Virus record (IMG/VR): IMGVR_UViG_3300008069_000054
Coordinates: 1 to 31,790 of that record
Reading direction: 5' to 3' (one strand)
Origin: a virus
Lineage: Duplodnaviria > Heunggongvirae > Uroviricota > Caudoviricetes
DNA length: 31,790 bases
The position numbers were made by a program, and so were the translations under genes. Numbering within the stretch: the stretch's first letter is position 1; the number at the start of each line of letters is the position of its first letter. Under the pieces are notes generated by a model. It saw nothing but the letters and a program-made list of their open reading frames with translations. It had not been told where the DNA came from and made no database searches. This document shows, piece after piece, positions 1 to 31,790 of this stretch.

Positions 1-219
1 TCACATCCACATAATTTGCTGCCCTGACGGCAACGGGTGCGGCCTTACGGCGTGGACTTCTCCCGGCTTCACGATGTATCGCTGTACCGACTCATAAGTG
101 ATGAACGTGGCGCTGCAATTCACGTTCTGACACTGGTGATAACGCTCTTTTGTCGTGTCAGTGATATAGCGACTTGTACGCGCATGTGCGGCATGCTGGC
201 ATAAAGGACAATGAAACAT
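1..219 (-). CDS. ogr: Ogr late-gene transcriptional activator (Cys4 zinc-finger)
   Basis: Translation from the internal Met (MFHCPLCQHAAHARTSRYITDTTKERYHQCQNVNCSATF...) matches P2 Ogr as I recall it (72 aa, CxxC...CxxxxC). The supplied ORF is extended 21 codons upstream; start placed at MFHC. Confidence 0.9.
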   Translation of the reverse strand: MFHCPLCQHAAHARTSRYITDTTKERYHQCQNVNCSATFITYESVQRYIVKPGEVHAVRPHPLPSGQQIMWM

Positions 220-300
220 CGCGAGCACCTCTTCCGGTTTTGTTGATGGTGCCATTTTAGTTAATTTATCCTTATAAAACAAACAGATAAAATAAAAACA

Positions 301-1464
301 TCACTCATCACCTTCTGTTTCGTACTCCACATCAGAAAGCCTGACCTCAAGCTCTAAGGACGTCGTGAAGCCGCTATTATTCAGAAAATGTATCACCTTA
401 GTGATTGTCCAGTCCTGCTCGTCTATGACGCGCTTAAAGCCTGACACTTTGACCGGCGTTTCCGTGTAAATATCTGCACGACCGGTAGCCAGGATGATGG
501 AGAACTCCGCTACACCCCGTTGCAGTTTATCCCACTTCGCCTGAGCGGCGCGCATGGCCTGCGCTTTTGTGGCATATACCGTAGTCAGGGCAAAAACGTT
601 GTCAGCTTCACCGGCCATGTATTCACCTTCGCGCGCTTCAGGTACTTTTGGCGCTTTCTTCTGCGTGACCGGTTTTGCTTTCGGGTGCTCCAGTGCGCGC
701 AGGTGTTTTTCTTTCTTTTTGCGTTTCAGTTTTACCTTCTGCTTTTGTGGTTTCGGGTCTTTGGTGTGTAACCACTTTGCCGTTACGCCGGTATAGGCTC
801 CACGGTCAGCAATCGCAAAATGATGACGGTCGCCGTCGCTGCGGGTGATGGTAATCTGCGGGATTTTTTTACCGCTGGCCGTCACCCCCTGCCCCGCTTT
901 GAGAAACAGCAGTTTTCCCATTTTTACCGACACCTCGCCGCCGTTGCGTTCAGCAAGACGGGTCAGGAATTTCACATCGGACTCCTGCGACTGGTCGATG
1001 TGCGGGATTTTAATTCCGGCCAGTGACGGAGCGACACTGGCTTCCAGCTTATTACGGGAGGCTATCGCCTCAACAATCGCACCGAGCGTGGTGTCATGCC
1101 ATGAGCCTTCACGGCGGGAATTGAGCGTCCCGCGAAAATCTGCACTCCGGGCGCGGATGGTGACCACATCCGGTGCGCCCCGGTGTTCAACCTCATCAAC
1201 GGTAAATTTCCCTTTGCATACCAGGGCAAAACCTTTCCAGCCGATATACACCGTCAGGACAGCGCCACGAACCGGCAGCCCGACCTGCCCGTCGGCATCG
1301 TTCAGTTCAATATCAAGCTGGTCAGCCTCAAAGCCCCGGTTATCCGTCAGGGTCATGCTCATCAGACGGTCGCTGATATTGCCGGTAATATCCCTGCTGT
1401 CGAGCATCAGCATGTAATCCGGCGTCAGCGTACTGCCTGCATCAAATGTCAGTGCATCCAGCAT
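301..1464 (-). CDS. D: Tail protein D (late control gene D)
   Basis: 387-aa ORF, same length as P2 gpD, with lysine-rich central linker (KPQKQKVKLKRKKKEKH); position between U and ogr. Confidence 0.9.
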   Translation of the reverse strand: MLDALTFDAGSTLTPDYMLMLDSRDITGNISDRLMSMTLTDNRGFEADQLDIELNDADGQVGLPVRGAVLTVYIGWKGFALVCKGKFTVDEVEHRGAPDVVTIRARSADFRGTLNSRREGSWHDTTLGAIVEAIASRNKLEASVAPSLAGIKIPHIDQSQESDVKFLTRLAERNGGEVSVKMGKLLFLKAGQGVTASGKKIPQITITRSDGDRHHFAIADRGAYTGVTAKWLHTKDPKPQKQKVKLKRKKKEKHLRALEHPKAKPVTQKKAPKVPEAREGEYMAGEADNVFALTTVYATKAQAMRAAQAKWDKLQRGVAEFSIILATGRADIYTETPVKVSGFKRVIDEQDWTITKVIHFLNNSGFTTSLELEVRLSDVEYETEGDE

Positions 1465-1943
1465 TATCCCGCCCCCGTCATACCCGTGAATTTAGTCGCC
1501 ATACTGCCAGCCTTACCGATGAGCGATTCCGCCTGTTTACCGATATCGCCATAAAGCGCGGCCAGTGATTCATCAACGCGGGTGAGCGACAGCGTAAAAT
1601 CAATTTTCCGGGGTGTGCCGTCTGCAAAGAAAATACTCCCTGTTTCACTCACCCTGCTGATGACATACATGCCGTAAATCATGCCGGTGCCATCCAGCAA
1701 CGGCCACGCCCGCCCCTCCTCTGCCATCAGCCTGAGCGTGGTCATCGTCAGCTTTCCGCCGGTCAGTTCGGGATAAAGCACACCGGCAAGCGTCATGTTT
1801 TCCTCACCCACACCGAGAAACTGATAGGCATCCCGTTTACCGATACGGGAATTTGACGGCCAGCGATAATCTGATTCACGCTGCATGGTCTGGTGTGGCA
1901 GCGTCTGGCGCATAAAAACAAACATACCTAACGCGAGCATCAT
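1464..1943 (-). CDS. U: Tail protein U
   Basis: 159 aa, same length and position as P2 gpU; start overlaps the D region by 1 nt (coupled translation). Confidence 0.88.
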   Translation of the reverse strand: MMLALGMFVFMRQTLPHQTMQRESDYRWPSNSRIGKRDAYQFLGVGEENMTLAGVLYPELTGGKLTMTTLRLMAEEGRAWPLLDGTGMIYGMYVISRVSETGSIFFADGTPRKIDFTLSLTRVDESLAALYGDIGKQAESLIGKAGSMATKFTGMTGAG

Positions 1944-1957
1944 TTTTCGTTACCTCC

Positions 1958-4405
1958 TTAACCGTCATGCATCATGCTGGCACGGGCGCGCGCACGTTTA
2001 TCCCGCTCGTATTTTTCGAGCGCATCCTGTAACTGGCGGTCAAGCTGTGTCCCCGGCGCAGTACCGCCCGTCAGGTTGATGTGATATTCGTTTTTACTCT
2101 GGTCCACATAAGAGCGACCAGCCGGTGCCGTGACCGGCTGGTAAGCCTGATAGCCTGCATAAGAGCTGGTCGCCGGAATATAACCACCTGTGCCATACGT
2201 GGCGGCATGAGTTCTGGCGGCGGTCTGGTCAAGTGCGTCAGACTCTTTGTTGATGACGCCGAGTTTTTCCAGTACCCAGTCAATACCGCTGCGCAGTTTG
2301 TTGAACGCATTAAGCGGCAGCATCAGCGCGTCAGCCAGTGCCTGCCCGAACATGACGCCAGTATCACGGCAACGGTTCAGGGTGTCCTGGGTGGCTTTGA
2401 CCGGGGCAATCAGGTTTTTAAACCACTGCCACGCGGCCTGTAACTTTTCACCCAGCCAGTCAAACACCGGTTTAAGTGGCGTGAACAGTTCCCCCACCGG
2501 CGCAAATGCCGCTTTCAGCCCTTCAATCACACCGCCAAAAAATGCGCTGACAGGCTCCCAGTATTTACGGATAAGTAACGCCCCGGCGACAATGGCGGCC
2601 ACCACGGCCACTACCGGCCAGCTAATCGCGCCGATAGCCGTCATAACGGCACTGCCAACCGTCGTGAAGATTGCCCCCATTGCACTTGCTGCTGCGATAA
2701 TGGCATTGATGCCGGTGATAACCGGCCAGGCTACGAGGCCAATGGCACCGATGACACCAATCAGCGCCAGTGCGCCACCGGCAATGAGACCAATGGTTGA
2801 CGCCAGTGATTTGTTTTTCTGTATCCAGCCGTCGAGTTTTAACACATACTTTGTGGCCGTCTGCGTGAGCTTACGCAGTGCGCCTTCCTGCTGGTCAAAC
2901 AGGTCTGTCCCCACCGCCTCATAAGCGGACTGAAACTCCTTAAAGTCACCGCCGAGGTTGTCCTGCATGATATTTACCAGCTCTGCGGTCTTCCCGTCTG
3001 AGGCTTTAAACGCAGCGGTCAGTTTGTCCAGCTTTCCGGTTGACGCGGCAGTCATCAGCACGGCGGCGGCTGAGCTGGCCTCCTCCCCGAAAATGGTTTT
3101 CATGTATTCAGCCTGCTGGGCAGTACCGAGCCGGTTTTTCTCAAAACTGGCCTGCATTTCTTTCAGAATGGTAAATACTGGTCGGGTGTTTCCCTTACTG
3201 TCTGAGGTTTTCACGCCAAGCTCTTTGAGTGCATCCCATGCTTTTCCCGTCGGTGCCTGCAGGCGACTTAACACGGCACGGCTTCCCGTCCCCGCCATTG
3301 AGCCTGTGATTTTTGCATCATGCAGCGCTCCGACCATTGCGGCGGTTTCTTCAATGCTGACACCGGCATTTTTTGCCACAGGTGCAGCATAGGTCAGCGC
3401 ATCGCTCATACCGTCAAAATCGGCGGCGGTTTTGTTCATCGTCATGGAGAGAACATCCCCAATATGAGCGACCTTATCGTTTGAAAGCTGAAAGGCGGAT
3501 TTCATCCCCATCAGCAGGGCAGCGTTTTCTTCCATCGTGCGGCGGTTCGCCAGCGCCATATTCAGCGTGACCGGCGTTGCCGCCTGAATGGCATCAACAT
3601 CCCCACCCGCTTTCGCGATGATTATCTGTGCACCGGCCGCATCATCCGCCGAGGCGGCGGTGTTGTCGCCGAGCTGGCGCGCCTGTTTGCGGAGCGCGGC
3701 CATTTCGGCGGAGTCTTTTGCCACTCCGAGCACAGCCTGTAATTCTGAGTTTTTCTGCGCAAACTCATAACCGGGCATCAGCAGCTTAACTCCGGCCATC
3801 GTTCCCGCCGCCGCAATCCCCACACCGGCAGCGCCCACTGAGGCCATATTTCCGGCCAGTTCCTTGCCGGCCTGATAACGCTGTTTGACTGCGTTAAGTT
3901 TTGCCTGTTGTGCACTGACACGCGCCAGTGCGTCGCGCTGACGGTTAAGCTGTGCGGTGGTTTCACTGATACGTTTTTTCAGCCCCTGCTCATCATGTGC
4001 AAGATTGCGGGTATTAATTCCCACAACGGCCAGTTCCCGCTGCTGGCGTTTAACGGAATCCGTCAGGCGGTTATATTTCGCCTGTAAGTCCTCCGCCGCA
4101 CGCTTCGCGGATTCCAGCACTTTCGCCTGAGCACGTGTCGGACGTTCGGTGTTTTTAAACTGTGTGGCAAGGGCTTCGGCCTCCTGCCGTGCCTTTTCAA
4201 GTGCATGACCAGTCACGGCGAGCTGTGCACTGGTCTTGCGAAATCCCTCAATACGGGATGCGTGACCGTTCAGCTCGCGCAGTGATTTTTGTGTTTCCCG
4301 GATATCCCCCGACAGCGATTTGCTCGCTGTGCGGATGGATTTAAACGGGCGGGATGCCTGGTCAACAGCCCTGAGCAATACCTGTAATTTTACATTGTTA
4401 CTCAT
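1958..4405 (-). CDS. T: Tail tape measure protein T
   Basis: 815 aa, coiled-coil-rich N-terminal half and Ala/Gly-rich hydrophobic segment typical of tape measure proteins; same length as P2 gpT; located directly downstream of E/E'. Confidence 0.92.
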   Translation of the reverse strand: MSNNVKLQVLLRAVDQASRPFKSIRTASKSLSGDIRETQKSLRELNGHASRIEGFRKTSAQLAVTGHALEKARQEAEALATQFKNTERPTRAQAKVLESAKRAAEDLQAKYNRLTDSVKRQQRELAVVGINTRNLAHDEQGLKKRISETTAQLNRQRDALARVSAQQAKLNAVKQRYQAGKELAGNMASVGAAGVGIAAAGTMAGVKLLMPGYEFAQKNSELQAVLGVAKDSAEMAALRKQARQLGDNTAASADDAAGAQIIIAKAGGDVDAIQAATPVTLNMALANRRTMEENAALLMGMKSAFQLSNDKVAHIGDVLSMTMNKTAADFDGMSDALTYAAPVAKNAGVSIEETAAMVGALHDAKITGSMAGTGSRAVLSRLQAPTGKAWDALKELGVKTSDSKGNTRPVFTILKEMQASFEKNRLGTAQQAEYMKTIFGEEASSAAAVLMTAASTGKLDKLTAAFKASDGKTAELVNIMQDNLGGDFKEFQSAYEAVGTDLFDQQEGALRKLTQTATKYVLKLDGWIQKNKSLASTIGLIAGGALALIGVIGAIGLVAWPVITGINAIIAAASAMGAIFTTVGSAVMTAIGAISWPVVAVVAAIVAGALLIRKYWEPVSAFFGGVIEGLKAAFAPVGELFTPLKPVFDWLGEKLQAAWQWFKNLIAPVKATQDTLNRCRDTGVMFGQALADALMLPLNAFNKLRSGIDWVLEKLGVINKESDALDQTAARTHAATYGTGGYIPATSSYAGYQAYQPVTAPAGRSYVDQSKNEYHINLTGGTAPGTQLDRQLQDALEKYERDKRARARASMMHDG

Positions 4406-4825
4406 TCGTGTTTCCGCTTCGCCGGAGCGCCTTTTCGCGCCATGTGATGAGTTCGGTCAGGCTCATGGGATACAGTTCTGATGGCGGCCAGTGAAATATC
4501 ACTGCCACATCCGCCATCAGGTCATCGACCGAGAGATTTTTCGGAAACGTCACTGCACCGAGTTCGGCGACAAAAAACCGACCACCTTACCGGCCAGCGC
4601 CACAAGGTCAGGCAGTTCCAGTGCGGCGACTTCCTGCTCGGTCAGCATCGGTGCCGTCATGCGCGGCAACACCTTAATCAGTGCATCGACTTCGGAGTTT
4701 GCGACCGCTGCCAGACTGACACCGCGCAGCGTCCCGGCACTGGGTTTCATCAGCGTGACCTGTTCGATAACCTGCTCACCACGTTTGACCGGATTGTCCA
4801 GGGTAATCACATTTTCTTTGTTCAT
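4398..4825 (-). CDS. E': Tail assembly chaperone E+E' (programmed -1 ribosomal frameshift product, 142 aa)
   Basis: Minus-strand heptamer TTTTTTG at about 4571-4577 inside E. The -1 frame continues for 57 codons (VAELGAVTFPKNLSVDDLMADVAVIFHWPPSELYPMSLTELITWREKALRRSGNTNE) and stops at 4398-4400, overlapping the T start codon. 85 + 57 = 142 aa, as in P2 E+E'. Confidence 0.85.
4550..4825 (-). CDS. E: Tail assembly chaperone E
   Basis: 91-aa ORF MNKENVITLDNPVKRGEQVIEQ... in the position of P2 gpE; ends 9 codons after the T6G slippery run. Confidence 0.9.
   Translation of the reverse strand: MNKENVITLDNPVKRGEQVIEQVTLMKPSAGTLRGVSLAAVANSEVDALIKVLPRMTAPMLTEQEVAALELPDLVALAGKVVGFLSPNSVQ
4571..4577 (-). 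other. Slippery heptamer TTTTTTG for the E/E' -1 frameshift
   Basis: Read directly: plus-strand CAAAAAA at 4571-4577 is TTTTTTG on the minus strand, in frame as GGT-TTT-TTG of E. Confidence 0.85.
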
Positions 4826-4881
4826 GGTTTTCTCACTTATGAATCGGGGTTAACCGGTCAGCCAGGCTGACCGGATGAAAA

Positions 4882-5400
4882 TCACAGGCCGATATTGCGG
4901 CGGTGTTGCTCCAGCCGGTCGACGCCGTTCACCTTCTCAATCATGTTGATGGTGTCGATTTCGACCAGCTCCTTACCGTCCATCGTCAGCCGGAAATAGG
5001 TGCAGACCACGGAGATTTTCGACTCGGTGTCTTCTCCCTGTTTACCCTCGCCGGTGTCGATTTCTTTCTGACGTCCACGCATGACCACCTCGACGGCCAC
5101 CGTTTCGCCGGTATCGTCACGCTGGTAAGAGCCTGCAAAACGAATCGGCACAGCATCCACACCGGTTGCGGCGTAAAGCTCCCAGATAACCGAATCCGGG
5201 AAGCCACCCAGCGACCACTCCATTGACAGCGCATCGTCATCAAGGCCGAGGTCTACCGGTGCGCTGCCGTTCATTCCCGCACCGCGATAGTTTTCGAGCT
5301 TACGGGTCAGTTTTGGCAGCGTGACGGACTTTGCAACGCCCTGATAGCTGTAGCCGTTCAGAAAGACGTTCATTAACTTGAGTTTGCGCGGCATTGCCAT
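4882..5400 (-). CDS. FII: Tail tube protein FII
   Basis: 172 aa, same length as P2 gpFII; immediately downstream of FI. Confidence 0.92.
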   Translation of the reverse strand: MAMPRKLKLMNVFLNGYSYQGVAKSVTLPKLTRKLENYRGAGMNGSAPVDLGLDDDALSMEWSLGGFPDSVIWELYAATGVDAVPIRFAGSYQRDDTGETVAVEVVMRGRQKEIDTGEGKQGEDTESKISVVCTYFRLTMDGKELVEIDTINMIEKVNGVDRLEQHRRNIGL

Positions 5401-5412
5401 CGGTCAGGCTCC

Positions 5413-6603
5413 TTAATTGCTGTTAACCGAGGTGACCAGATTTGCCAGGTATTTATCGGTAATACGCTGGCGCAGGGTCAGGTTTTCGAGAGGAGGCACC
5501 GGTGTATAGTCGTAGTCGATATACAGTTTTCCGGCCTTGAGGGTTTCCGCATCATTGGCTTCTTCACTGAACCAGCATGTGCCATCCACGATATAACCGT
5601 TGCTTTTCAGTTCACGGAATTTGGCATTGATGCCGTCAACGATGTCGCGAATCAGCGTTGCGGTGATGGGCTTATCAATAGCCCACATGTGTGCCTCAGC
5701 CATCGTGTCAGCCAGTACCTGCGCGGTGCGTGTGTAGCTTTCAAAGAGGAACAGTGGGTCATCGGAGCAGGTACGGTTACCCCAGAAACGGAAACCGTCG
5801 CGGCGAACCAGCGTTGTGACGCCTGCCTCGTTCAGTAGGTCAGCATCAGTGCCGGACTTCTGCAAATCCCAGAATACAGATGCGCTGATGCCGGTAACAC
5901 CGTTTACCCCGACGTTGGACAGCGTTTTATGCCAGCCCTGCTCCTGGTCGATTTTAGCGCGCAGACCCAGCGCACGGGCGGTGGCATACGCGGTGGCGGT
6001 GGTGCTGGTGACCGTATCCCATGCGAGGAAATCCGGCCAGATGACCATCAGCTCACGCTGGCTGAAATTCTGGCGGTAGGCTTTCACCTCGGAAATGGTT
6101 TTACAGCCCCATGCACTGATATACCCGAATGCATTCAGTTCCTGGCATACCGATGCCAGTGCGACGGCAACCTCTTTGGTGTCCAGCCCCGGCACACCAA
6201 GAATGCGCGGTTTAACGCCGGTAACCGACTCAGCCCCCATCAGGGCTTTCAGTCCGGTGTACTGACCGTTTTCGTCAGTGGTGCCGATGATATTGGAAAC
6301 GGTCTGCGCGAGTTTCGTTTCCTCGTCGTCGCCGGTGCCGTCTTCCACACGCACGACAACGGTGACCGGTTTTGACTGGTCGGCGATGGCCTGCAACGAT
6401 GCCGCTAGCGTGCCTTTTTTACCAGCCTTTGCAATTGCGCTCTGCACATTGGTAATCAGCACCGGTTTATTGAGGGGGAAGGTTTCCGCATCCGCATCGC
6501 TGGCCGTGCAGACCATGCCGACAATGGCAGTGGATACGGTGGAAATGACGCGGGTGCCGTCGTTAATCTCCAGCACCTGCACGCCGTGATGATAGTCACT
6601 CAT
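5413..6603 (-). CDS. FI: Contractile tail sheath protein FI
   Basis: 396 aa, same length as P2 gpFI; position and sheath-like sequence. Confidence 0.93.
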   Translation of the reverse strand: MSDYHHGVQVLEINDGTRVISTVSTAIVGMVCTASDADAETFPLNKPVLITNVQSAIAKAGKKGTLAASLQAIADQSKPVTVVVRVEDGTGDDEETKLAQTVSNIIGTTDENGQYTGLKALMGAESVTGVKPRILGVPGLDTKEVAVALASVCQELNAFGYISAWGCKTISEVKAYRQNFSQRELMVIWPDFLAWDTVTSTTATAYATARALGLRAKIDQEQGWHKTLSNVGVNGVTGISASVFWDLQKSGTDADLLNEAGVTTLVRRDGFRFWGNRTCSDDPLFLFESYTRTAQVLADTMAEAHMWAIDKPITATLIRDIVDGINAKFRELKSNGYIVDGTCWFSEEANDAETLKAGKLYIDYDYTPVPPLENLTLRQRITDKYLANLVTSVNSN

Positions 6604-6727: not shown

Positions 6728-7037
6728 GCCTTGATTTGTACTCACTCAGTTTCCAACTGACAATTTACGTAGCCAAAACGCTATCAGCTCTGACAGCCAG
6801 CTTTGAGCGAGTCGAAAAAGTTCATACCTTTCTGCTGGTGAAAGTTTAACTAACAGTTCAACCTATCAATTAATTGATGAACAGGTTGAGGCGTTTTTAA
6901 TATCTCTGCGTCATCTGAGACGATTTTGCGCTACAGGATTTACGGCTTATCTGGGGGCATTCTTGAGCCCTGACTCCTCTGAAAACATAATTAGGCCATA
7001 CCTGTGACCTGCTCTTCGTTGGTAAGGTTAGCGAATA

Positions 7038-8147: not shown

Positions 8148-8445
8148 CTAAATACTATTAAACTTGTCATGGGAAAATCCGATTATTATTGTAGAGAACA
8201 ACAAAAACTGGCCTCGATTTTAGAGTTTTTCCAGTATCTATTTTCCGACTCGTTCGGCGGTAATCCACCGTTATATTCATGAGGCCGGGGTGCACTATAA
8301 TATTCAACTATATACTCTGTTTGTAGTGGCACATTAAATTTGGTGACAGATATGCATCACGTCCGCTCCTAGCACAGAGCGGACAGTCAGATTAGGTTTT
8401 ACTCTGTGCCATAGATGAGTAATCTCACACCAGAGCTAATACGAT

Positions 8446-13084: not shown

Positions 13085-13088
13085 GGTT

Positions 13089-18345: not shown

Positions 18346-18348
18346 CGG

Positions 18349-19422: not shown

Positions 19423-19480
19423 AGTTTTTCCTGAAATTAAGGGTTAATCGTGAAGGTTTTCCCGGACTGACTGACGCCGG

Positions 19481-23448: not shown

Positions 23449-23467
23449 GTGCTTTCCCCGCCTCGCC
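23449..23467. other. cos cohesive-end site (19-nt core)
   Basis: Plus-strand GTGCTTTCCCCGCCTCGCC is the reverse complement of GGCGAGGCGGGGAAAGCAC, which I recall as the P2 19-nt cohesive end. It lies in the ORF-free interval next to Q, as cos does in P2. From memory, not searched. Confidence 0.6.
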
Positions 23468-23632: not shown

Positions 23633-25276
23633 TTAAGATCTACATTCAACTAAAAGGTACACTAATGGACGTTCTGGCGTCCCATTCTTCTTTGCAACAA
23701 AAGCAGATATTTTGTGTTTTGCTATTTTTTGCTTGAGTTTTTTACATAACACTTTGTTTATATAACCAAGTTTCCCGCTCTCATGAACAACAGCTATAGC
23801 ATGTGGATCAACCGGGTTATCCTCTTCAGGAACAAGCTTGACCAAATCACCGACCATTACTTTCGACAAATCAAGCCCTTCCTGATAACGAGTTCCTGCC
23901 ACTTCAAAAAGAAGCTCACCTTCACTATTAAGAATTTCTGGATCTGGCACCAAACAAAAACCATCGCCAGGTGATTTTGCTCCTGTATATCCTAACAGCG
24001 CAAAATCAGAGCCTTCAAATGGATGGGGGAGCAAATGTTGAGCCAGATACTCAGCAAAGTCTTTTCTTTTCCGTGGTGGTAAACGCCGAACAAACGGGTC
24101 AAGCACGTTGTTCGTATGTTCTTCACTTTTCAGACTAAATGCGGGATGTCCTGCAAACCCTTTCTCTTGGGCTTTAGCATAATCTTCTGACTGAAAATGG
24201 TATGTGAAGACGTAGTTATCCCCTTGCTGACGATCAATCTGACCAACAACATAACGAGTACCGCCTGTGGGTGGCTGCCATGTAAGAAGCAACCGAGTAG
24301 GCTCCATTATTCTGTTTATAGTACGCATATTTAGAATCAGTGATAACCTTAGGTATCTACGCCTCAATAAACGAATCGTCCAATCCGCTCGTTCCCTAGT
24401 GAACGGCACATCGGAGCTAATTTCGCAAAGTGAATCTATCTTGTCGACCAGTTCCTGAAAATCAAATTCAAGTCTCCGGGCCAAGTACGCTTTTGACTGC
24501 TCATCAAGAGCCAAATCCTGTATAGAAGAAATATGACCTAATCGTTCATGCGTGTCTGCCCGATTCTTCCGCAAATGATGACAACCACGCTGTATGTATT
24601 CATCTACATTTTGATGGTTCCATCCTCTGATCCTCTCTACATACCTTTCATGCCCCAAACTAGTACCATTATCGAAATATGGTGCGAGATATCCCTTCAC
24701 TTTAGGTGGCGTTATGCCTGGTGCAGATTCAGGTACAAAAACAAAACCCCAATTCTCTTGGTGTCTATCACTATTACCGATGAGCGCATCAAAAAGCAGC
24801 ATATCGTAAAGCCATTGGATCCAGTCTGGAGAGATCAGGCCGCGGATACTAAAAGCCCTACAAATTAAGCGTAGATCAACAAGGTTATGGTGTCTTCCGG
24901 AAGAGTCATCAAAATCCGATATCAACACATGAAAAAAATCAGACGCATGAACAAATAACTGGCTACTTTGATCGTAAAACCACTCAAGCAAAGCTCCATA
25001 TTCGTATTCACCGTTCTCCATCATTCTTCGCGCTGGCAATGCTTTAGGAACAGGAACGCCCATAACATCTCCAACTATATAAGCAACGGTTTCCATCCAG
25101 TACTGATCGGGATAAGCATCTCTTGAGAGTTTAAAAAGATAAGGCCATTCCGGTTTTATCCCCTCAGGAGCATCATTCGGTGACCAAAGCATTTTTTTAT
25201 CCCTCGCTCCTCGAGGAAAAATGCCATGCTCATCATCTTTACGCCAACTAGTTACATCTATTAAATTGATATCCAT
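23633..25276 (-). CDS. HipA-like Ser/Thr protein kinase fused to a C-terminal HIRAN domain (hotspot cargo; candidate defence or abortive-infection effector)
   Basis: 547-aa ORF. The motif LLFDALIGNSDRHQENWGF matches the HipA/CtkA-family catalytic loop (GNxDRHxxN). The C-terminal approximately 90 aa (GTRYQEGLDLSKVMVGDLVKLVPEEDNPVDPHAIAVVHESGKLGYINKV) matches the HIRAN pattern (G.ry...G..v.L..E..NpyDpnAi.V.....lGY). Strongly AT-rich DNA (about one third GC in hand-counted stretches). Replaces tin/old of P2. Confidence 0.7.
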   Translation of the reverse strand: MDINLIDVTSWRKDDEHGIFPRGARDKKMLWSPNDAPEGIKPEWPYLFKLSRDAYPDQYWMETVAYIVGDVMGVPVPKALPARRMMENGEYEYGALLEWFYDQSSQLFVHASDFFHVLISDFDDSSGRHHNLVDLRLICRAFSIRGLISPDWIQWLYDMLLFDALIGNSDRHQENWGFVFVPESAPGITPPKVKGYLAPYFDNGTSLGHERYVERIRGWNHQNVDEYIQRGCHHLRKNRADTHERLGHISSIQDLALDEQSKAYLARRLEFDFQELVDKIDSLCEISSDVPFTRERADWTIRLLRRRYLRLSLILNMRTINRIMEPTRLLLTWQPPTGGTRYVVGQIDRQQGDNYVFTYHFQSEDYAKAQEKGFAGHPAFSLKSEEHTNNVLDPFVRRLPPRKRKDFAEYLAQHLLPHPFEGSDFALLGYTGAKSPGDGFCLVPDPEILNSEGELLFEVAGTRYQEGLDLSKVMVGDLVKLVPEEDNPVDPHAIAVVHESGKLGYINKVLCKKLKQKIAKHKISAFVAKKNGTPERPLVYLLVECRS

Positions 25277-25285
25277 ATCTTACGG

Positions 25286-25837
25286 TTACCCAGCTAATGC
25301 ACGGAAAGCAGCACTAACATAAGCTACCTGAAACTTTGCATCTCGAAGCGCATGATGCGCATCAGTAACATTAATGGAAAAATTTGCCCTTACATCAATA
25401 TTCTTAAGGCTTTTAGCTAGTTCAACGATGGTACGCACGTCTCGATCATTTCGAAAACGCCATGGGATATTTTGCGCATGTTTACGGTAAACCGCTGCCA
25501 ATATAGCGTTATCAAAGCTTGCCCCATTCCCCCAAACTTGTACGTCATCGTTACTACGACTTCGTACAAATAGAGAAAATTCTTGTAAGGCTTCATGTAA
25601 GTCAACAGCAGACGGGTCATTAAAAACCGCCCTTGCAGAATCGCTTTGTATCATCCACCACTGTAAAGTTTTTGGGTCTACAAAACTATTTTCCAATGCA
25701 GATGATAGGGTTATAACTCTATAAAACTCATCCCCACACTTGCCAGTCAGAGGCTCAAAGAACACAGCGCCGATTGAAATCAAAGGAGCATCCATTGACA
25801 CACCTAATGTTTCTATATCGAGCATTAAATTATTCAT
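25286..25837 (-). CDS. DEDDh-type (DnaQ-like) 3'-5' exonuclease
   Basis: 183-aa ORF starting MNNLMLDIETLGV... (Exo I motif D-x-E), with HHALRDA near the C-terminus (Exo III H-x4-D, DEDDh subtype). It lies 9 nt upstream of the kinase-HIRAN gene on the same strand (operon). AT-rich. Confidence 0.7.
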   Translation of the reverse strand: MNNLMLDIETLGVSMDAPLISIGAVFFEPLTGKCGDEFYRVITLSSALENSFVDPKTLQWWMIQSDSARAVFNDPSAVDLHEALQEFSLFVRSRSNDDVQVWGNGASFDNAILAAVYRKHAQNIPWRFRNDRDVRTIVELAKSLKNIDVRANFSINVTDAHHALRDAKFQVAYVSAAFRALAG

Positions 25838-26015: not shown

Positions 26016-28292
26016 TCAAGGGAAATCATTAAAACCCGGCCAATCACAACAAGGCGGATAAACAAATTTTTTCATGTCATAAATAACTTCTGCCCCACGA
26101 GCCAGCGCCTCAAGCTCCCATCTCTGAGGCCTGATACCGTTCTGAGCAAGGTCAACGCGGATACGGGTGATTTGCAATCGTTCAGACCGGGTCAGTCTGG
26201 CCGATGGTGCAATTTCATGCGGTTTTAACGGGCTTCCGTTTCTTTGCTGACGGTTTGGTCTTCTCAGGCCGTATTTTAATGCACCTCTGAGCGCCCTCAC
26301 GACCTCCGGGTCATTCCATTCGATAACACCGTCATCAACCAGATTAAGCACTGCTGCGGCGTGCTCAGAAGGTGTGGGAGCCAGTAACGAAGTATCACCA
26401 CCGGTGAGCTTTCCACAGTTATTGACAGGACTCCGAGGCGCGGCGATGCCGCTTTTTAAAGTCAAAGGCTCAACGACCGGAACTTTCGGCACAATGCGCC
26501 AGTCCGTCGTTCTGGTGATATGAATATGACGCGCGCCGAGATGCGGCGCGTAAATGCCGACCACTCTCTCGACTTCTTCCTCGTACTCGTTAACGTCATC
26601 CGACAGACTACGGGCGACCCTGACAGTCTGACAATCGCGCGGGACATTTGCCCCGCCCTGCGCGCTGATATACAGCGCAAAATCACCACTGTCTGCGGCG
26701 GCGCGTGCAGCCTCGACGCGCTCGTCAAACTCATCAGCAATGCTGACGCCGCGAGGCAATTTGCGTAGTTCACGGTAAGCCCCCATTGTCGGCAGGCCAA
26801 CCGTTTTAAATTGCGGAATGCGCCACGTTGACGCCCATGCGGTAACAGCCGCGGCAGTATCTTTCAGCGGTCTGCCGGTATCGTTATCGAGCTGCCCATC
26901 CAGTGCATAGCCGTCGATATTTTTTGAGATGTATTTCGCGATATACCCCGCAGCACCGCCCCGATTAAGATGTTTTGCCTGAAAACGGTTTCGCGCGGCT
27001 CCTCTTTCGTCGCCATCCTCTTTGAGCGCATAGCGACGCATGATTTCGATAATCTGGTTACGCTGGCGTGGATTACAAAAAAGCATCATATGCCAGTGCG
27101 GCGTTCCGTCGTGGTGTGGCTCGACGACTCGCAAACCGTAGACCTGTAAATCATTATCCTTGAATGCCGTGCGCATCAGGCTCCAGATACGGCAGAGATA
27201 ACGCTGCGCATCCTTTGGATTAAATGCCTCATCGTTCCAGCCGTGATTAAGCTGAACGGTTTTACTTTCGCCTTTTCCGACCTGACGTGTCGGGTGATAC
27301 TTTGACGGCGCGGTCAGCGTGATAAACATCCCCACATCACCCTCTGCGGCGGCGTAACGCTCAATACCGGCAATGGTGTTCATCAGCTCCATCCGGCGAA
27401 TTTCAGGATTAGAAATACTGCCCATCACCTTACTGATAAGGTCGATGCGCTCGCCGGTTTCCCTGTTTTCAAGGTCACACGATTTAAGAAATTCCAGATT
27501 TGCCTGGCGGCGCGCACGCACATCACGAATGGCGTGTTTACTGGCATAAGGAGAACGGTCTTTATTGACCTCCCCGACAGCTATCAGTAACGCCTCATGC
27601 CAGCGCATACGCTGGCCTTTAAGCTGATGAGTCCACCACTCATCGTTAAACAGGCGGGCAATGGCAGAATATGCCTGCCTCGTGGTCATCTGTCCTTTAC
27701 GGTATTTTTTCCAGTAGAGCGGGGAAATATTGAAAGCACGTGCAGCGCCAGCAACATGACCATACAGGTGAGCCTGCGCCTCATCCGTAAACAGCGATTC
27801 TTTTTCACCATGCGCATCAACCCATGCATCGCAGAGTTCCTCATACATCATGAAAAGCTGCGATGAGATACGGGCGGCAAACTTTTTCAGCTCCTTGTCA
27901 TTCATTCCCGGCAGGCGCGCATAGTGGTCACGCTCTGCCAGAAACAGCAACGACGCGTCGGTGTTCATTTCATGGCGCTGATTCACACGCTCAATGCGCG
28001 GCCATAAACGACGCTGAAAAGTAGATGTGAGGAAATAAAATCCGTGCACCGGGCTTTTATTGCGCCGGATGTAGTCATAGCGTGAAGTAAACAGCGAGCG
28101 CAAAAAGTAAGGCAGGCGATTAATCGTGGATAAAACACCTTGCACCTGACGCATCTCGTCACGTGTAAGGGGTCTTTCGCGCCCGACAGCCTCGCGTGGC
28201 GCGTTCCATGCATAAGCACCGGTAAACGTCTTACCGGTGCCTGCGGCAAATGCTGACGGAGGGACAAAACGCCCGGAGGCTTTAACGGCCAT
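26016..28292 (-). CDS. A: Replication initiation protein A (rolling-circle nickase)
   Basis: Translation from the internal Met MAVKASGRFVPPSAFAAGTGK... is near-identical over most of its length to P2 gpA as I recall it; the supplied ORF extends 14 codons upstream. C-terminal residues differ from P2. Confidence 0.92.
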   Translation of the reverse strand: MAVKASGRFVPPSAFAAGTGKTFTGAYAWNAPREAVGRERPLTRDEMRQVQGVLSTINRLPYFLRSLFTSRYDYIRRNKSPVHGFYFLTSTFQRRLWPRIERVNQRHEMNTDASLLFLAERDHYARLPGMNDKELKKFAARISSQLFMMYEELCDAWVDAHGEKESLFTDEAQAHLYGHVAGAARAFNISPLYWKKYRKGQMTTRQAYSAIARLFNDEWWTHQLKGQRMRWHEALLIAVGEVNKDRSPYASKHAIRDVRARRQANLEFLKSCDLENRETGERIDLISKVMGSISNPEIRRMELMNTIAGIERYAAAEGDVGMFITLTAPSKYHPTRQVGKGESKTVQLNHGWNDEAFNPKDAQRYLCRIWSLMRTAFKDNDLQVYGLRVVEPHHDGTPHWHMMLFCNPRQRNQIIEIMRRYALKEDGDERGAARNRFQAKHLNRGGAAGYIAKYISKNIDGYALDGQLDNDTGRPLKDTAAAVTAWASTWRIPQFKTVGLPTMGAYRELRKLPRGVSIADEFDERVEAARAAADSGDFALYISAQGGANVPRDCQTVRVARSLSDDVNEYEEEVERVVGIYAPHLGARHIHITRTTDWRIVPKVPVVEPLTLKSGIAAPRSPVNNCGKLTGGDTSLLAPTPSEHAAAVLNLVDDGVIEWNDPEVVRALRGALKYGLRRPNRQQRNGSPLKPHEIAPSARLTRSERLQITRIRVDLAQNGIRPQRWELEALARGAEVIYDMKKFVYPPCCDWPGFNDFP

Positions 28293-28557
28293 ATGAGCCA
28301 AAAGCCTCTGAAAAACGCTTGCTGAGTTGCTCAACCTGCGCGTTTAAATCAGCAAAAGACTTTGCGCTTCCGGTCAGAATATCGTGATGCATCAGGCCGG
28401 AAACGAGCTGGCTTAATTTCGGGTAATAACCAACCACCGCCAGCCATTCCTGACCGGCGTTTTTACCGCTTTCCGCTCTCTTTTTCTCGTGGAGAATAAA
28501 CTGAAAGCTGTCACTGGTAACGACATAACGTTCGCCAATTTCAATACGAATACTCAT
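28282..28557 (-). CDS. Hypothetical protein (P2 orf83 position)
   Basis: 91-aa ORF immediately upstream of A, in the early operon. Confidence 0.65.
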   Translation of the reverse strand: MSIRIEIGERYVVTSDSFQFILHEKKRAESGKNAGQEWLAVVGYYPKLSQLVSGLMHHDILTGSAKSFADLNAQVEQLSKRFSEAFGSYGR

Positions 28558-28778
28558 GCCGTTCTCCGGTAATGTTTGTTTTTTGCTTCAAAGACTGACT
28601 GGCAGGAAACACAACGCGTGGCTGACGGATAAGCCGCACGACGGGCAGCAGGTATTGGCGCGTCACACTCTTCGCAAACCAGCGCAGAAACACCGCAATG
28701 CTTTACCCTTGCCGCGTTAATCTGGCGCTCCAGTAATTCAGCCTGTTGTTCCTGAATAAAATCTACGTTGTCCGGCAT
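28554..28778 (-). CDS. TraR/DksA-family C4 zinc-finger protein (P2 orf82 position)
   Basis: 74-aa ORF with CxxC...CxxC (CEECDAPIP...CVSCQ). Confidence 0.7.
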   Translation of the reverse strand: MPDNVDFIQEQQAELLERQINAARVKHCGVSALVCEECDAPIPAARRAAYPSATRCVSCQSVFEAKNKHYRRTA

Positions 28779-29083
28779 TACCAGCTCCTTTTGTCGTTAA
28801 GTTTTTTAAATTCATCAGCGCAATAGCTGGCAATTTCTGTCGTTAATTTCGTCAGTTCGTCCACGGAGGAGATTTGCTTGTGAAATACAGCGCGTTTAAC
28901 AAGTAAATTGACCACATCAGATAGGAGATTTAATTCGTTCTGATAAATCGCGATAACAGACTCAGTTATTTCGCGTTTTTCTTTATCAAGACCAAGTTGA
29001 ATAAGAGATAAATCGCCATTTTTCATAACGGCGATTTTTAAGGCGTTATTCAGTAATACAACTGAACGAGAACAGGACATCAA
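28778..29083 (-). CDS. Hypothetical protein (P2 orf81 position)
   Basis: 101-aa ORF in the early operon between B and A, translationally coupled to neighbours. Confidence 0.65.
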
Positions 29084-29337
29084 AGCACCTCCCCGCGAGA
29101 CAATCCGATATTGTGAAATTTTTCCGACTCCTGACTGAGCAGCTCGACTATCTCCACGCGGGATAACTCCGCCTTTGTGATATGGCGAATCATGGCGTCA
29201 AGATGAGAAGAAAAGCGCGTCGCTGCGTCGGCCTGTGCTTCGGTTCTGGCCTGTTGCAGCAGTAATGCGTATTTACCGCACTGATTTTCAGAAACTGTAT
29301 GCATGACTTTCTCCAGGCAAAAAGAAGCCCCGCACAA
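29080..29337 (-). CDS. Hypothetical protein (P2 orf80 position)
   Basis: 85-aa ORF; the real start may be the internal Met (MHTVSENQ..., about 29304). Confidence 0.6.
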
Positions 29338-29367
29338 TTAAGTGCGTTAAAAACTCTGGTTAATTAC

Positions 29368-29874
29368 TTAATGCAGATATTGCTCTGGTTTTACCGACGT
29401 CAGAATTGTCGGTGCATACTCAAACAGACTGAATAATTCACGTAATGCACGGAATAAAGCATCACGCCAGTAACATGACTCTTCATTAATTCGCCAGTAT
29501 GGCTGGTTGAATTCTTTTTCAGTCAATCCGGCATGCATAAATAAAGTACGACGCTGACTGACTGTTAAAAAACTAATATATGCATACTCACTTGCGCCAA
29601 CCTGACGGCGTTTTGAGAATGCACCACGCAATTCATCAATTGCACATACCAGTCGTTCACGTTCGACGTCGTTCATTTCTTCAAAACACATCGTTGCGTG
29701 ACGCTGTTTTAACTGAGCATGGAAGCAAACCGTTAACCGTTCGCGCTCCATCATCTGATTATAATAATCACATGTATCCTGCCAGCGAGGAACGGCAAGA
29801 TGCTTACCAATTATCCGGCGCATAGCTGCTGGCTGTTTTTCAACGAGATTGAGCGTCATCACTGTCATTTCCAT
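29368..29874 (-). CDS. B: Replication protein B (DnaB helicase loader)
   Basis: Translation MTVMTLNLVEKQPAAMRRIIGKHLAVPRWQDTCDYYNQ... matches P2 gpB as I recall it; the start is likely 2 codons inside the supplied ORF. Confidence 0.9.
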   Translation of the reverse strand: MEMTVMTLNLVEKQPAAMRRIIGKHLAVPRWQDTCDYYNQMMERERLTVCFHAQLKQRHATMCFEEMNDVERERLVCAIDELRGAFSKRRQVGASEYAYISFLTVSQRRTLFMHAGLTEKEFNQPYWRINEESCYWRDALFRALRELFSLFEYAPTILTSVKPEQYLH

Positions 29875-30062
29875 ACCCTCCGGCTTTTCAGAAAGGTCAG
29901 AGCCTTTTTTAACGGACTCTGTTTTTTGGTGCGGATAATGATTCCCTTACGCCCCTTACCGTGGGTGATGGTGAAGTCAATCGCCCTGGGGCTTTCGTTA
30001 CGCAATAACTGAGCAATACAACGCGGCTCATTCATAATCACAACCCCATCCACAAAAGCCAT
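29865..30062 (-). CDS. Small hypothetical protein (P2 orf78 position)
   Basis: 65-aa ORF between cox and B; basic C-terminus. Start uncertain. Confidence 0.5.
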   Translation of the reverse strand: MAFVDGVVIMNEPRCIAQLLRNESPRAIDFTITHGKGRKGIIIRTKKQSPLKKALTFLKSRRVWK

Positions 30063-30310
30063 GCATCACGCTGTTCAACCGGTCGGTTATAAAACGCCTC
30101 ACGTACAGCGCGATTAAACTCAGGAATGAAAACCCATTTTTCACCGGCACGAGCCTTCGGTTTGCAAGGATCACGCAATTCAATAATTGGTAATTTATTT
30201 GCCTTCACCATTTCACTGACGGCTGTCTTTGGCTTCCCTAATAAATCAGCAAATTTATCCACATGAACCGCATCAAGCGGATACTGAATCACATAATTTT
30301 CAGCGTCCAT
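30038..30310 (-). CDS. cox: Cox-like excisionase / transcriptional repressor of the lysogenic promoter
   Basis: About 90-aa protein (MDAENYVIQYPLDAVHVDKFADLLGKPKTAVSEMVKANKLPIIELRD...) resembling P2 Cox in length, HTH-like segment and conserved C-terminal WL.WMGL. It is the first gene of the early operon, divergent from C. Start chosen at the ATG preceded by GAGGG. Confidence 0.8.
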   Translation of the reverse strand: MDAENYVIQYPLDAVHVDKFADLLGKPKTAVSEMVKANKLPIIELRDPCKPKARAGEKWVFIPEFNRAVREAFYNRPVEQRDAWLLWMGL

Positions 30311-30387
30311 ATATGGTACCCTCATAGGATCCAGCCCTTTCTAAACCACTCAAAACCGTTTAGATGCTGGTTTATTCTCAAATCAAT

Positions 30388-30435
30388 GGAACCTATATAG
30401 GTTCCAGTTTTGAGGGAATTTAGTCCCTATATAGG
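30388..30435. promoter_or_regulatory. Immunity-region operator candidates: two copies of the palindrome CCTATATAGG (first extended to GGAACCTATATAGGTTCC)
   Basis: Read directly between cox and C: GGAACCTATATAGGTTCC at about 30388-30405 and CCCTATATAGG at about 30425-30435, centres about 34 bp apart. A third related palindrome CCATATATGG overlaps the cox start codon (about 30307-30316). Confidence 0.5.
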
Positions 30436-30446
30436 CACCATGTCAA

Positions 30447-30740
30447 ATGAAATTAAGCGAAAAGATTAAGGCCTTGCGTGAGGCTGAAGGGCTAAGCCAA
30501 TCAAAATTCTGTGAAATCATAGAGTTACCGCTAAGCACACTTAAAAAATATGAAGGAGGAAACTTTGAACCCGGTGGCACAGCTTTGCTAAAAATCACTA
30601 TGCATCCCACATTCCAAAAATATGCTCTATGGCTTATGACAGATAAAACCGCGCCGGACGCAGGACAAATCGCACCGGCTCTCGCGCACATTGGGCCAGA
30701 GTCAACAGAGTCCAACCACTCCGCGAAAAGGATTGGCTAA
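30447..30740 (+). CDS. C: Immunity repressor C (P2 C-like)
   Basis: 97-aa protein; C-terminal half (ITMHPTFQKYALWLMTDKTAPDAGQIAPALAH...) resembles P2 repressor C; N-terminal HTH region diverged. Position upstream of int and divergent from cox. Confidence 0.85.
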   Translation: MKLSEKIKALREAEGLSQSKFCEIIELPLSTLKKYEGGNFEPGGTALLKITMHPTFQKYALWLMTDKTAPDAGQIAPALAHIGPESTESNHSAKRIG

Positions 30741-30809
30741 CTCTATATAAAGATTACATTTTCACCATTTGCTACCAAGATGGTGAATACAGCGCCGGAG
30801 GGCTTTCTT

Positions 30810-31790
30810 ATGGCAATTAAGAAGCTCGATGATGGTCGCTATGAAGTGGACATTAGACCTCGCGGTCGCGACGGAAAACGCATCCGCAGGAAATTCGAAA
30901 GAAAAGCTGAAGCACTAGCATTTGAGCGATACACAATCGCCAATGCCAGTCAGAAAGAATGGGGAGGCCAGCGAGCAGACCGCCGGACTTTGAGTGAGTT
31001 GCTGGACATCTGGTGGAAATATCACGGGCAAAACCACGAGCATGGAACAAAAGAGTTTAATCATCTACTCAAAACCATCAGCGGCATAGGTGATATACCA
31101 GTGAGCAGGATGAGCAAAAGGGCTTTGATGGATTATCGTTCCATGCGACTACGTGATGGTATCAGTGCCGCAACGATAAACCGTGACATGTACCGATTAT
31201 CCGGCATGTTCACAAAATTAATTCAATTGGATGAATTTTCCGGGCAACACCCAATTCACGGACTGCCGCCACTGGCGGAGGCCAACCCTGAAATGACGTT
31301 CCTGGAAAAAGCAGAAATCGAAAAACTGTTAAATGTTTTGGCTGGTGATGACTTACTTGTCGCGCTTTTATGTCTGAGCACCGGAGGAAGATGGACGGAA
31401 GTTGCCACGCTAAAACCAGCACAGATTACAAATTGCAGGGTTACCTTCCTGAAAACCAAAAACGGTAAAAAGCGAACCGTGCCGATTTCTGAGGAACTGG
31501 AGAAAAAAGTTAAAGAGGAGGCCAGCGCCAAATTATTCAAAGTTGATTATGAGAAATTTTGCGGGATTTTACGCAGAGTGAAACCTGATATACCACCCAA
31601 TCAGGCAACCCACATCCTGCGGCATACATTCGCAAGCCATTTCATGATGAATGGGGGCAATATAATCGCACTGCAACAGATTCTGGGACATGCGAGCATT
31701 CAGCAGACGATGGCCTATGCGCACCTTGCGCCTGACTATCTGCAAAATGCCGTCGCTCTGAATCCACTAAAAGGCGGAGTGACGTTATAA
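30810..31790 (+). CDS. int: Tyrosine integrase (P2 Int-like)
   Basis: From the internal Met MAIKKLDDGRYEVDIRP..., which matches the P2 Int N-terminus; C-terminal catalytic region with HxxR...Y (ILRHTFASHFMMNGGNIIALQQILGHASIQQTMAYAHL). GGAGGG ribosome-binding site upstream of the chosen ATG. Stop is at the window end. Confidence 0.92.
   Translation: MAIKKLDDGRYEVDIRPRGRDGKRIRRKFERKAEALAFERYTIANASQKEWGGQRADRRTLSELLDIWWKYHGQNHEHGTKEFNHLLKTISGIGDIPVSRMSKRALMDYRSMRLRDGISAATINRDMYRLSGMFTKLIQLDEFSGQHPIHGLPPLAEANPEMTFLEKAEIEKLLNVLAGDDLLVALLCLSTGGRWTEVATLKPAQITNCRVTFLKTKNGKKRTVPISEELEKKVKEEASAKLFKVDYEKFCGILRRVKPDIPPNQATHILRHTFASHFMMNGGNIIALQQILGHASIQQTMAYAHLAPDYLQNAVALNPLKGGVTL

Follow-up and report, generated by a model that had tools for sequence, protein, structure and literature searches.

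Two described relatives of bacteriophage P2 (NC_001895), Escherichia phage WPhi (NC_005056) and Yersinia phage L-413C (NC_004745, a P2 relative of the E. coli type), have one common attP core and one site (PMC3448106), and the Wphi1 prophage of E. coli W is located at cpxP-fieF (PMC3032704). The P2-type arm repeats follow the consensus tgTGGaCa (PMC3448106). With respect to accessory genes, the family of HipL kinases has been defined and described (Gerdes et al., 2021; PMC8262856), and a DEDD nuclease beside HipA and HIRAN genes has so far been reported only in Gram-positive bacteria (PMC11706625).

The DNA analyzed here (the window, 31,790 nucleotides) very probably represents the full coding complement of a mosaic P2-like (Peduovirus) temperate myovirus that is integrated in an E. 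coli chromosome and was trimmed at the stop codons of ogr and int. The mosaic combines a structural, lysis, late-control and replication backbone of the P2 type with the int-C-cox module of L-413C, and two AT-rich hotspots, beside FI and beside cos, hold accessory genes different from those of P2.

Limits of the window and the P2-type backbone

The window begins with the ogr stop codon (bases 1-3, TCA, the reverse complement of TGA, minus strand) and ends with that of int (TAA, 31788-31790), as the earlier note had read them. It reads in reverse complement to the standard P2 map, in the permutation of a P2 prophage, with cos internal at 23449-23467. The edges, both of which are CDS boundaries, most likely reflect cutting or extraction and not a biological end; the ogr terminator, the attR-side arm and the att arms lie outside the window. 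A virion or plasmid form was rejected in view of the internal cos and of ends that fit the prophage permutation. The backbone comprises the following features.

1..219, minus strand: ogr, 72 aa, 100% aa identity to the Ogr of P2 and WPhi (ogrK in the RefSeq annotation)
301..6603, minus strand: F operon tail genes, all full length, 95.7-100% aa identity to P2 (D 301-1464, U 1464-1943, T 1958-4405, E' 4398-4553, E 4550-4825, FII 4882-5400, FI 5413-6603)
11653..14068, minus strand: baseplate genes, 92.6-100% aa identity to P2 (I 11653-12183, J 12176-13084, W 13089-13436, V 13433-14068)
14069..14134: short S-V spacer without an orf30 match, at which the alignment block breaks
14135..20335, minus strand: O operon (S, R, lysC, lysB, lysA, K, Y, X, L, M, N, O), full length, 94.3-100% aa identity to P2
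20415..20445, minus strand: Ogr activator-binding site, 31/31 identical to the annotated P2 site
20509-22281, plus strand: P, large terminase subunit, 100% aa identity to P2
22281-23315, plus strand: Q, portal, 98.8% aa identity to P2
23321-23342: tQ terminator after Q, exact P2 match
23449..23467, minus strand: cos cohesive-end sequence, reverse complement of GGCGAGGCGGGGAAAGCAC, 19/19 match to P2 cosL
26016..30035, minus strand: early replication operon, 96-100% aa identity to P2 (A 26016-28292, then orf83, orf82, orf81 and orf80, B 29368-29868, orf78 29865-30035)

BLAST against the permuted P2 genome returned blocks at 3-6811 (95.6%), 11037-14068 (92.2%), 14133-23496 (97.1%) and 26032-30036 (97.4%), all in the same order and orientation, and this check for rearrangement relative to P2 revealed none. 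Altogether 36 P2 proteins were placed in the expected order, and 33 have full-length counterparts with 92.6-100% aa identity; the match is perfect (100%) for Ogr, P, X, Y, K, W, FII, E, B and orf78. The gene order is that of Peduovirus (Q-P / O-N-M-L-X-Y-K-lysABC-R-S / V-W-J-I-H-G / FI-FII-E-E'-T-U-D-ogr / int-C / cox-B-A), and all essential P2 genes retain their full length, free of frameshifts and premature stops. The O operon contains head, lysis and tail-completion genes.

Nevertheless, the description of the window as almost exact P2 went too far, since P2 aligns to only 74% of it (fraction 0.744) at 92-97% nucleotide identity, which corresponds to an identity x coverage of 0.712. The proximity to P2 that had been claimed for the backbone proteins holds for A, B, Ogr, O, L, X and P (97-100%); Int as a whole reaches about 50%. 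Instead of two substituted hotspots, five regions were found to differ from P2, namely the Z/fun locus, the distal part of H together with G, the missing orf30, the old/tin/orf91 locus and the cox-C-int module. The window lacks the P2 genes orf30, fun(Z), orf91, tin and old. The GC content of the hotspots is 0.41-0.46, versus 0.55-0.60 in the backbone.

Several cis-acting sites of P2 are conserved exactly: the ori nick site (26414-26454, within A), the B terminator and the -1 slippery sequence of E/E' (4555-4585). The Ogr activator-binding site listed above is common to the divergent late promoters pO and pP. The P2 activator sites of pV and pF were not recovered in the window at up to 25% mismatch, and the P2 terminators of ogr, the O operon and the V operon, as well as the Pe/Pc operators (including Pe/O1/O2), gave no match within a mismatch of about a quarter of their length. 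As these sites sit in or beside substituted regions or outside the window, their absence is no argument against function. The positions of pV and pF are hotspot borders, which are divergent in WPhi and L-413C also.

The int-C-cox module and the integration site

The part of the window in which the departure from P2 bears on immunity and integration lies at its int end.

30038..30310, minus strand: cox of the L-413C type, excision directionality factor and Pc repressor (Pfam Phage_Cox)
30311..30446: C-cox switch region (promoter scan and repeat search)
30447..30740, plus strand: C immunity repressor, 97 aa, HTH_3, L-413C immunity type
30810..31790, plus strand: int, tyrosine integrase, 326 aa, longest ORF from 30780 (Pfam Int_N and Phage_integrase)

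At the aa level, Int is 99.7% identical to that of L-413C, 98.8% to that of WPhi and about 50% to that of P2; the corresponding values are 100%, 56% and 42% for C, and 98.9%, 82% and 38-43% for Cox. Judged from these protein identities, the module is one of the L-413C/WPhi lineage and not of P2. The similarity between Int and P2 Int is confined to the arm-binding N-terminus (33/40 of the first residues, the first 17 being identical), which accounts for the earlier impression of closeness to P2 there. The near-identity to WPhi C that marks WPhi immunity class III was not found, and with a repressor only 56% identical to WPhi C, the prophage and WPhi are probably heteroimmune. In the switch region, the promoter scan located a Pe-like promoter (TTGACA-18-TAAATT) on the minus strand from 30446 to 30417, and paired CCTATATAGG palindromes are candidate operators.

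The window itself has no host flank, and the evidence for integration comes from identical copies in other records. It is 100% identical to positions 4846998-4878787 of NZ_CP195364.1, between fieF and cpxP. Identical copies in E. coli chromosomes occupy the fieF-cpxP interval and are flanked by a 47-bp direct repeat, GATAAAAAAAACCCCCACATCATGTGGGGGAAGACAGGGATGGTGTC, which in these copies lies outside the window, 111 bp from base 1 and 116 bp from base 31790. This agrees with the earlier proposal that the gene ends face attR (ogr side) and attL (int side) and that the stretch was trimmed just inside the att sites; a look at the chromosomal flanks of the copies likewise revealed the duplicated att core, and other genomes possess the empty site.

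The 47-bp core is the WPhi/L-413C attP core, exact in WPhi attP and absent from the ogr-int spacer of P2. The reconstructed attP (274 bp) aligned end to end with the ogr-int spacer of WPhi at 88%, with the core exact, and P2-type arm repeats are present on both sides of the core, TGTCCACATAGTGTCCACA immediately past the int stop codon and TGTCCACATAGCGTCCACA close to ogr, both outside the window. The empty site matches the reconstructed attB at 100% and is intact in 4591/5426 complete E. coli genomes; P2-like DNA matched 4811/5426 of these. Thus, as tested on the identical copies, the WPhi-type Int, the WPhi core in attL and attR and the cpxP-fieF site place the element in the WPhi/L-413C integration class. 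With its WPhi specificity, Int recombines the 47-bp attP core with an attB of the same sequence, located between the terminator of cpxP and the promoter of fieF, and integration duplicates the core without disrupting a gene. tRNA and Rfam scans of the whole window gave 0 matches and no known ncRNA; since no tRNA was matched, the integration target is not a tRNA gene.

Tail fibre and accessory genes

The remaining differences from P2 concern the tail fibre and the two hotspots.

6812..8445, minus strand: substituted Z/fun hotspot, GC about 0.45
7038-8117, minus strand: 359-aa orphan, phrog_15038, unknown function (longest ORF reaches 8147)
8186-8320: IS3 transposase remnant within the Z/fun hotspot, from the annotation
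8446-9024, minus strand: G, tail-fibre assembly, 192 aa, 40% identical to P2 G over the C-terminus
9024-11642, minus strand: H, tail fibre, 872 aa (Pfam Phage_tail_fib, Collar and Caudo_TAP across the G/H region)
23633..25276, minus strand: HipL-type kinase, first cargo gene of the old/tin hotspot (Pfam HipA_C 23-206, Couple_hipA 343-437, HIRAN 453-525)
25286..25837, minus strand: DEDDh 3'-5' exonuclease, second cargo gene of the old/tin hotspot, 183 aa, Rv2179c-like (Pfam PF16473, E=7e-57)

Residues 1-207 of H are 84% identical to P2 H, and beyond residue 207 no P2 match was found. The best full-length phage match in the G/H region is P24A7b (79%), and no phage record covers the whole Z/fun-G-H region well, the best reaching 47%. 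The swap of the distal part of H together with its chaperone G should alter the host range. In relatives of this prophage ISEc12 is inserted in gene H, and the lineage decays in some hosts.

At Z/fun, a search of the window with the fun(Z) protein gave no match, and the 359-aa orphan had 0 matches in Pfam and PADLOC. The orphan is membrane-anchored and may be beta-propeller-like.

According to its Pfam domains, the protein encoded at 23633-25276 fits the family definition of HipL: a single chain contains the kinase, a HipS-like part and HIRAN. The predicted catalytic-loop motif, GNSDRHQENWGF, was aligned to H. pylori CtkA, the Ser/Thr kinase activity being a prediction. The PADLOC profiles PDC-M03A and PDC-M03B both match (E 4e-31 and 1e-30) as halves of this fused protein, so that both proteins of the candidate system PDC-M03, whose anti-phage role is putative, are present; a two-gene version occurs in a marine MAG (L007). 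The exonuclease sits at the orf91 position downstream of A and also matches phrog_255 (exonuclease) and PDB 8kel ('Exodeoxyribonuclease', E=2e-5). A search of genome contigs for loci related to HipL yielded only 2 marine MAG loci, both split into two genes and with no adjoining exonuclease; therefore, an obligatory link between HipL and the exonuclease is unsupported outside P2-like phages. The searchable literature yielded no experimental study of HipL.

Both cargo loci map precisely to known P2 defence hotspots. We tentatively suggest, at somewhat less than even confidence, that the accessory genes of both hotspots (HipL with or without the exonuclease, and the 359-aa orphan) have uncharacterised functions in anti-phage defence or lysogenic conversion. 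In such a model, the HipS-like part of HipL might act as an auto-inhibitor and HIRAN as a sensor of DNA ends, and HipL, possibly with the adjacent DEDDh exonuclease, might trigger abortive infection on DNA ends from an incoming phage, while the orphan at Z/fun could serve superinfection exclusion. Screens for defence systems could reasonably include the HipL/exonuclease pair and the orphan.

Alternative readings and comparison with known phages

Since the cos, ori nick and E/E' slippery sequences are all exact, the prophage is probably viable, that is, predicted to be able to excise and to form particles. A defective, cryptic P2-like remnant unable to yield phage is the alternative that survives best, although we consider it unlikely. 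Such remnants are common in E. coli, and an IS3 fragment at Z/fun as well as ISEc12 in the H gene of sister copies would fit with decay; however, the IS3 fragment is confined to a non-essential hotspot, the essential P2 genes are all full length, and cos, ori, the slippery site, the terminators, the att cores and the arm repeats are intact. The inferred genome length of 32,064 bp also falls within the Peduovirus range of 30.7-33.8 kb.

According to the ICTV, members of the genus share at least about 70% genome-wide nucleotide similarity with the type species, and members of one species are at least 95% identical in nucleotide sequence across the whole genome. The value of 0.712 against P2, measured on the window only, lies marginally above the genus limit, and the P2-type 19-nt cos (19/19) and the Ogr zinc-finger late activator (72/72) likewise speak for Peduovirus. 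A prophage of one of the named species L-413C, WPhi or Escherichia phage 899 (PV533660.1) is very improbable: the int-C-cox module is essentially that of L-413C, the att core is that of WPhi, and phage 899 matches the window continuously over 15049-31790 (96.8%, HipL and exonuclease included), but identity x coverage amounts to only 0.78, 0.75 and 0.87, respectively, all below 0.95, the repressor region of phage 899 is WPhi-like, and the Z/fun-G-H region is poorly covered by any phage record. That the window belongs to the species Peduovirus P2 and differs from P2 just in two replaced cargo hotspots is hardly credible, since the ten identical proteins, the collinear order and the 17 identical first residues of Int stand against an aligned fraction of 0.744, an identity x coverage far below the 95% required of a species, an integrase, C and Cox of another type, the WPhi core in place of the P2 attP core, a swapped H tip and G, and the lack of orf30.

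We therefore retain the reading of a mosaic Peduovirus prophage. As a prophage it is of little importance, P2-like prophages being common in E. coli; the element should, however, be neither annotated nor reasoned about as P2, since its immunity, integration site and probably host range differ.

Compared with P2, the prophage shares gene order, prophage permutation, 33 backbone proteins, cos, the ori nick site, the E/E' frameshift and the pO/pP activator sites, whereas Int, C, Cox, the att core, the chromosomal site, the H tip, G and the cargo are different. L-413C has the same int, C and cox genes, immunity type and att core and a backbone of 96-97% nucleotide identity, but different contents of the Z/fun and A-to-cos hotspots and a different tail fibre (H/G). 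WPhi agrees in Int, in the exact 47-bp attP core and in the cpxP-fieF site; in contrast, its C, Cox and tail fibre differ, and its cargo consists of a cytosine methylase, orf96 and orf98. In the maps of both WPhi and L-413C orf30 is missing, as in the window. The best overall matches in the phage database, phage 899 and Yersinia phage GMG73, possess the same HipL and 3'-5' exonuclease between A and cos, but have a WPhi-like repressor region, two other hypothetical genes at Z/fun and another tail-fibre tip and G; over the int-C-cox module, phage 899 gives a coverage of only 79%, at 93.6%. The element is an ordinary addition to Peduovirus, whose integration site, integrase class and mosaic style have all been described previously.

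Boundaries and divergence from P2

The window runs exactly from the ogr stop to the int stop, as the earlier note had claimed: TCA at bases 1-3 is the TGA stop, read in reverse complement, of a minus-strand ORF (1-219) whose 72-aa product is 100% identical to P2 Ogr, and the TAA at 31788-31790 is the stop of a plus-strand tyrosine-integrase ORF. That both ends coincide with stop codons looks like the product of an extraction rule, not like a biological boundary. The P2 reference NC_001895 was permuted to prophage order (int stop through cos to ogr stop), reverse-complemented and compared with the window using BLAST, which returned four large blocks in a single order and orientation.

BLAST blocks of the window against permuted P2 (nucleotide identity)
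3-6811, 95.6%
11037-14068, 92.2%
14133-23496, 97.1%
26032-30036, 97.4%

No rearrangement was found in this alignment, so that the collinearity with P2, for which a check had been proposed, was borne out. The cohesive-end site cos lies inside the window (exact at 23449-23467), where an integrated genome, unlike a packaged one, is expected to have it.

The search with all 42 P2 proteins using tblastn matched 33 backbone proteins at full length with 92.6-100% identity. Those named as P2-like in the earlier note were indeed 97.1-100% identical (A, 97.1%; O, 98.9%; L, 99.4%; B, Ogr, P and X, 100%). For Int, the likeness of the N-terminus claimed there is literally correct, since the two proteins share their first 17 residues and agree at 33 of the first 40, but overall Int is only about 50% identical to its P2 counterpart, with 6 identities in 40 across residues 81-120, the almost unrelated core-binding region. 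The N-terminal region is the arm-binding domain, which is conserved across P2-type integrases. C and Cox are 42% and 38-43% identical to those of P2, the tail fibre H is alignable to P2 H over its first 207 residues only and G weakly, and for P2 orf30, fun(Z), orf91, tin and old no counterpart was found in the window using tblastn. No more than 74% of the window can be aligned to P2 (identity times coverage, 0.71). Taken together, these differences amount to five regions differing from P2 rather than the two substituted hotspots proposed, and the description "almost exact P2" is unsupported. What stands of the earlier note are the boundaries, the collinearity, the backbone and the reading as a P2-family prophage that is integrated and cut just within its att sites; the claim on Int does not stand, and the identification with P2 itself gives way to the integration and immunity lineage of L-413C and WPhi at cpxP-fieF.

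Integration site and immunity module

Since the window carries no host flank, the site was read from 100%-identical segments in several complete E. coli genomes, among them NZ_CP195364.1 (4846998-4878787, between fieF and cpxP). The flanks of an identical chromosomal copy (L003) contain a 47-bp direct repeat, GATAAAAAAAACCCCCACATCATGTGGGGGAAGACAGGGATGGTGTC (2841-2887 and 34905-34951), one copy of which ends 111 bp ahead of window base 1 while the other begins 116 bp past base 31790. Thus, the repeated core and the integration locus sought in the flanking sequence were both located on identical chromosomal copies. The att cores, the ogr terminator and the two arm sites of Int lie outside the window, and the phage genome is inferred to measure 31790 + 111 + 116 + 47 = 32,064 bp.

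Joining the phage-side flanks gave an attP of 274 bp that can be aligned over its full length to the ogr-int spacer of WPhi (88%), the core being exact; the 47-bp core is not present in the P2 ogr-int spacer. Paired TGTCCACA arm repeats flank the core on both sides and match the published P2-type arm consensus (PMC3448106). The attB reconstructed from the host-side flanks matches the unoccupied cpxP-fieF spacer, e.g. of Nissle 1917, at 100% identity. Of 5426 complete E. coli genomes, 4591 have this empty site intact, and it is therefore split in about 15%. The core carries the rho-independent terminator hairpin of cpxP, which on the cpxP strand reads CCCCCACATGATGTGGGGG and then T8. Integration leaves a copy of the core at each end and so disrupts no gene, sparing both the termination of cpxP and the region upstream of fieF, as read directly from the sequence. 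E. coli W harbours the Wphi1 prophage at cpxP-fieF (PMC3032704), and WPhi and L-413C have the same attP core and the same MG1655-equivalent site, 4104392, whereas the P2 site is at 2165238 (PMC3448106).

From cox to the int stop, the 1754-bp module shares 99.3-99.9% identity with several Peduovirus genomes, L-413C among them (Int 99.7%, C 100% and Cox 98.9% at the protein level), whereas WPhi matches it over only 79% of its length, at 93.8%, with an Int 98.8% identical yet a C of only 56%. On this pattern of protein identities, the prophage combines the integration specificity of WPhi with the immunity of L-413C. The C-cox spacer contains a Pe-like promoter directed at cox, overlapped by the palindrome CCTATATAGG, which occurs twice about 35 bp apart (30386-30441). 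These palindromes are candidate operators of the L-413C-type repressor, unlike O1/O2 of P2, which are direct repeats.

Integrity and hotspot cargo

All essential genes are full length by tblastn against P2, and the following sites are identical to P2:

4555-4585, E/E' -1 slippery site
20415-20445, Ogr-binding site common to pO and pP
26414-26454, ori nick region, inside A
tQ and B terminators, and the cos site

The prophage is probably viable. Its H gene is intact. In a sister copy (NZ_CP196491.1), the IS21-family element ISEc12 (locus L013, 11642-14341) lies inside H, and this copy is presumably inactivated; in the matches to sister copies H36, H38 and H39, ISEc12 is known only as an annotation under the match. 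Many complete E. coli assemblies, e.g. NZ_CP089445.1, have base 1 inside the prophage, at the end of gene A, which is annotated "replication endonuclease"; each such chromosome matches from record position 3293 or 2262 onward. This looks like an assembly-rotation artefact, in which gpA was mistaken for a replication-start gene and the prophage was split over the origin.

Both hotspots are AT-rich (GC 0.41-0.46 vs 0.55-0.60 in the backbone). The A-to-cos (old/tin) hotspot of P2-like phages is a recognised reservoir of anti-phage systems (PMC9122126); here it holds two genes on the strand of gene A (23633-25837, minus).

Hotspot cargo
25286-25837, minus, 183-aa Rv2179c-like DEDDh 3'-5' exonuclease (Pfam E=7e-57)
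23633-25276, minus, HipL-type fused kinase (HipA core, HipS-like domain, HIRAN), directly downstream of the exonuclease
7038-8117, minus, 359-aa orphan with N-terminal hydrophobic helix, in the Z/fun cassette (about 6800-8190)
8186-8320, IS3-family transposase remnant (C-terminal fragment), between the orphan gene and the tail-fibre assembly gene G

The HipL family was described bioinformatically by its HipA core-HipS-like-HIRAN domain order (Gerdes et al., PMC8262856). The predicted kinase has the catalytic-loop motif, and its halves match the PADLOC candidates PDC-M03A and PDC-M03B. Among 5426 complete E. coli genomes, 61 carry this two-gene cargo, each time next to gene A. A DEDD dinucleotidase adjoining HipA and HIRAN genes has been reported from Gram-positive genomic islands of Actinomycetes and Clostridia (PMC11706625), and HipA-family kinases of other architectures have been validated in defence (PMC13092281); no experimental study of HipL was found in the searchable literature. 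The closest non-enterobacterial relative (53% identity), in a marine uncultured Neptunomonas MAG (locus L007, 5318-7621), is split into overlapping genes, one for a kinase of 323 aa and one for a HipS-HIRAN protein of 229 aa (the hipIN arrangement), lacks the exonuclease and adjoins an integrase fragment. Its split form suggests that the E. coli phage HipL arose by gene fusion.

The 359-aa orphan, with a DLDKDGNKD motif, has no Pfam or PADLOC match, but matches phrog_15038 (no assigned function); its relatives make up only 15 protein clusters, and its AF2 model is poor (pLDDT 58). CP4-57-like islands carry a homologue with 82% identity in their cargo region, where it adjoins a 245-aa gene that is absent from the window. 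The IS3 remnant may point to the way in which the Z/fun cargo was swapped.

Relatives and taxonomic placement

Identity times coverage of the window rises from 0.71 for P2 through 0.75 (WPhi) and 0.78 (L-413C) to 0.87 for Escherichia phage 899, which matches continuously over 15049-31790, cargo beside cos included, but has a different repressor region, Z/fun locus and fibre tip. For Z/fun through G and H, the phage database comparison yielded no record with good coverage, the best full-length phage match of H being P24A7b (79%). Compared with P2, the distal two-thirds of H (872 aa vs 669 aa) and its chaperone G are swapped (8446-11036), which implies a predicted receptor specificity unlike that of P2; other Peduoviruses match at about 86% over H residues 1-673 and differ in the last ~200 residues. 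Usual ICTV practice sets the species threshold at 95% and the genus threshold at 70%, by which the prophage is an unnamed member of Peduovirus. The uncharacterised hotspot cargo is the sole part with some prospect of novelty; as a whole, the prophage is an ordinary finding, assembled from modules each of which has been seen before.
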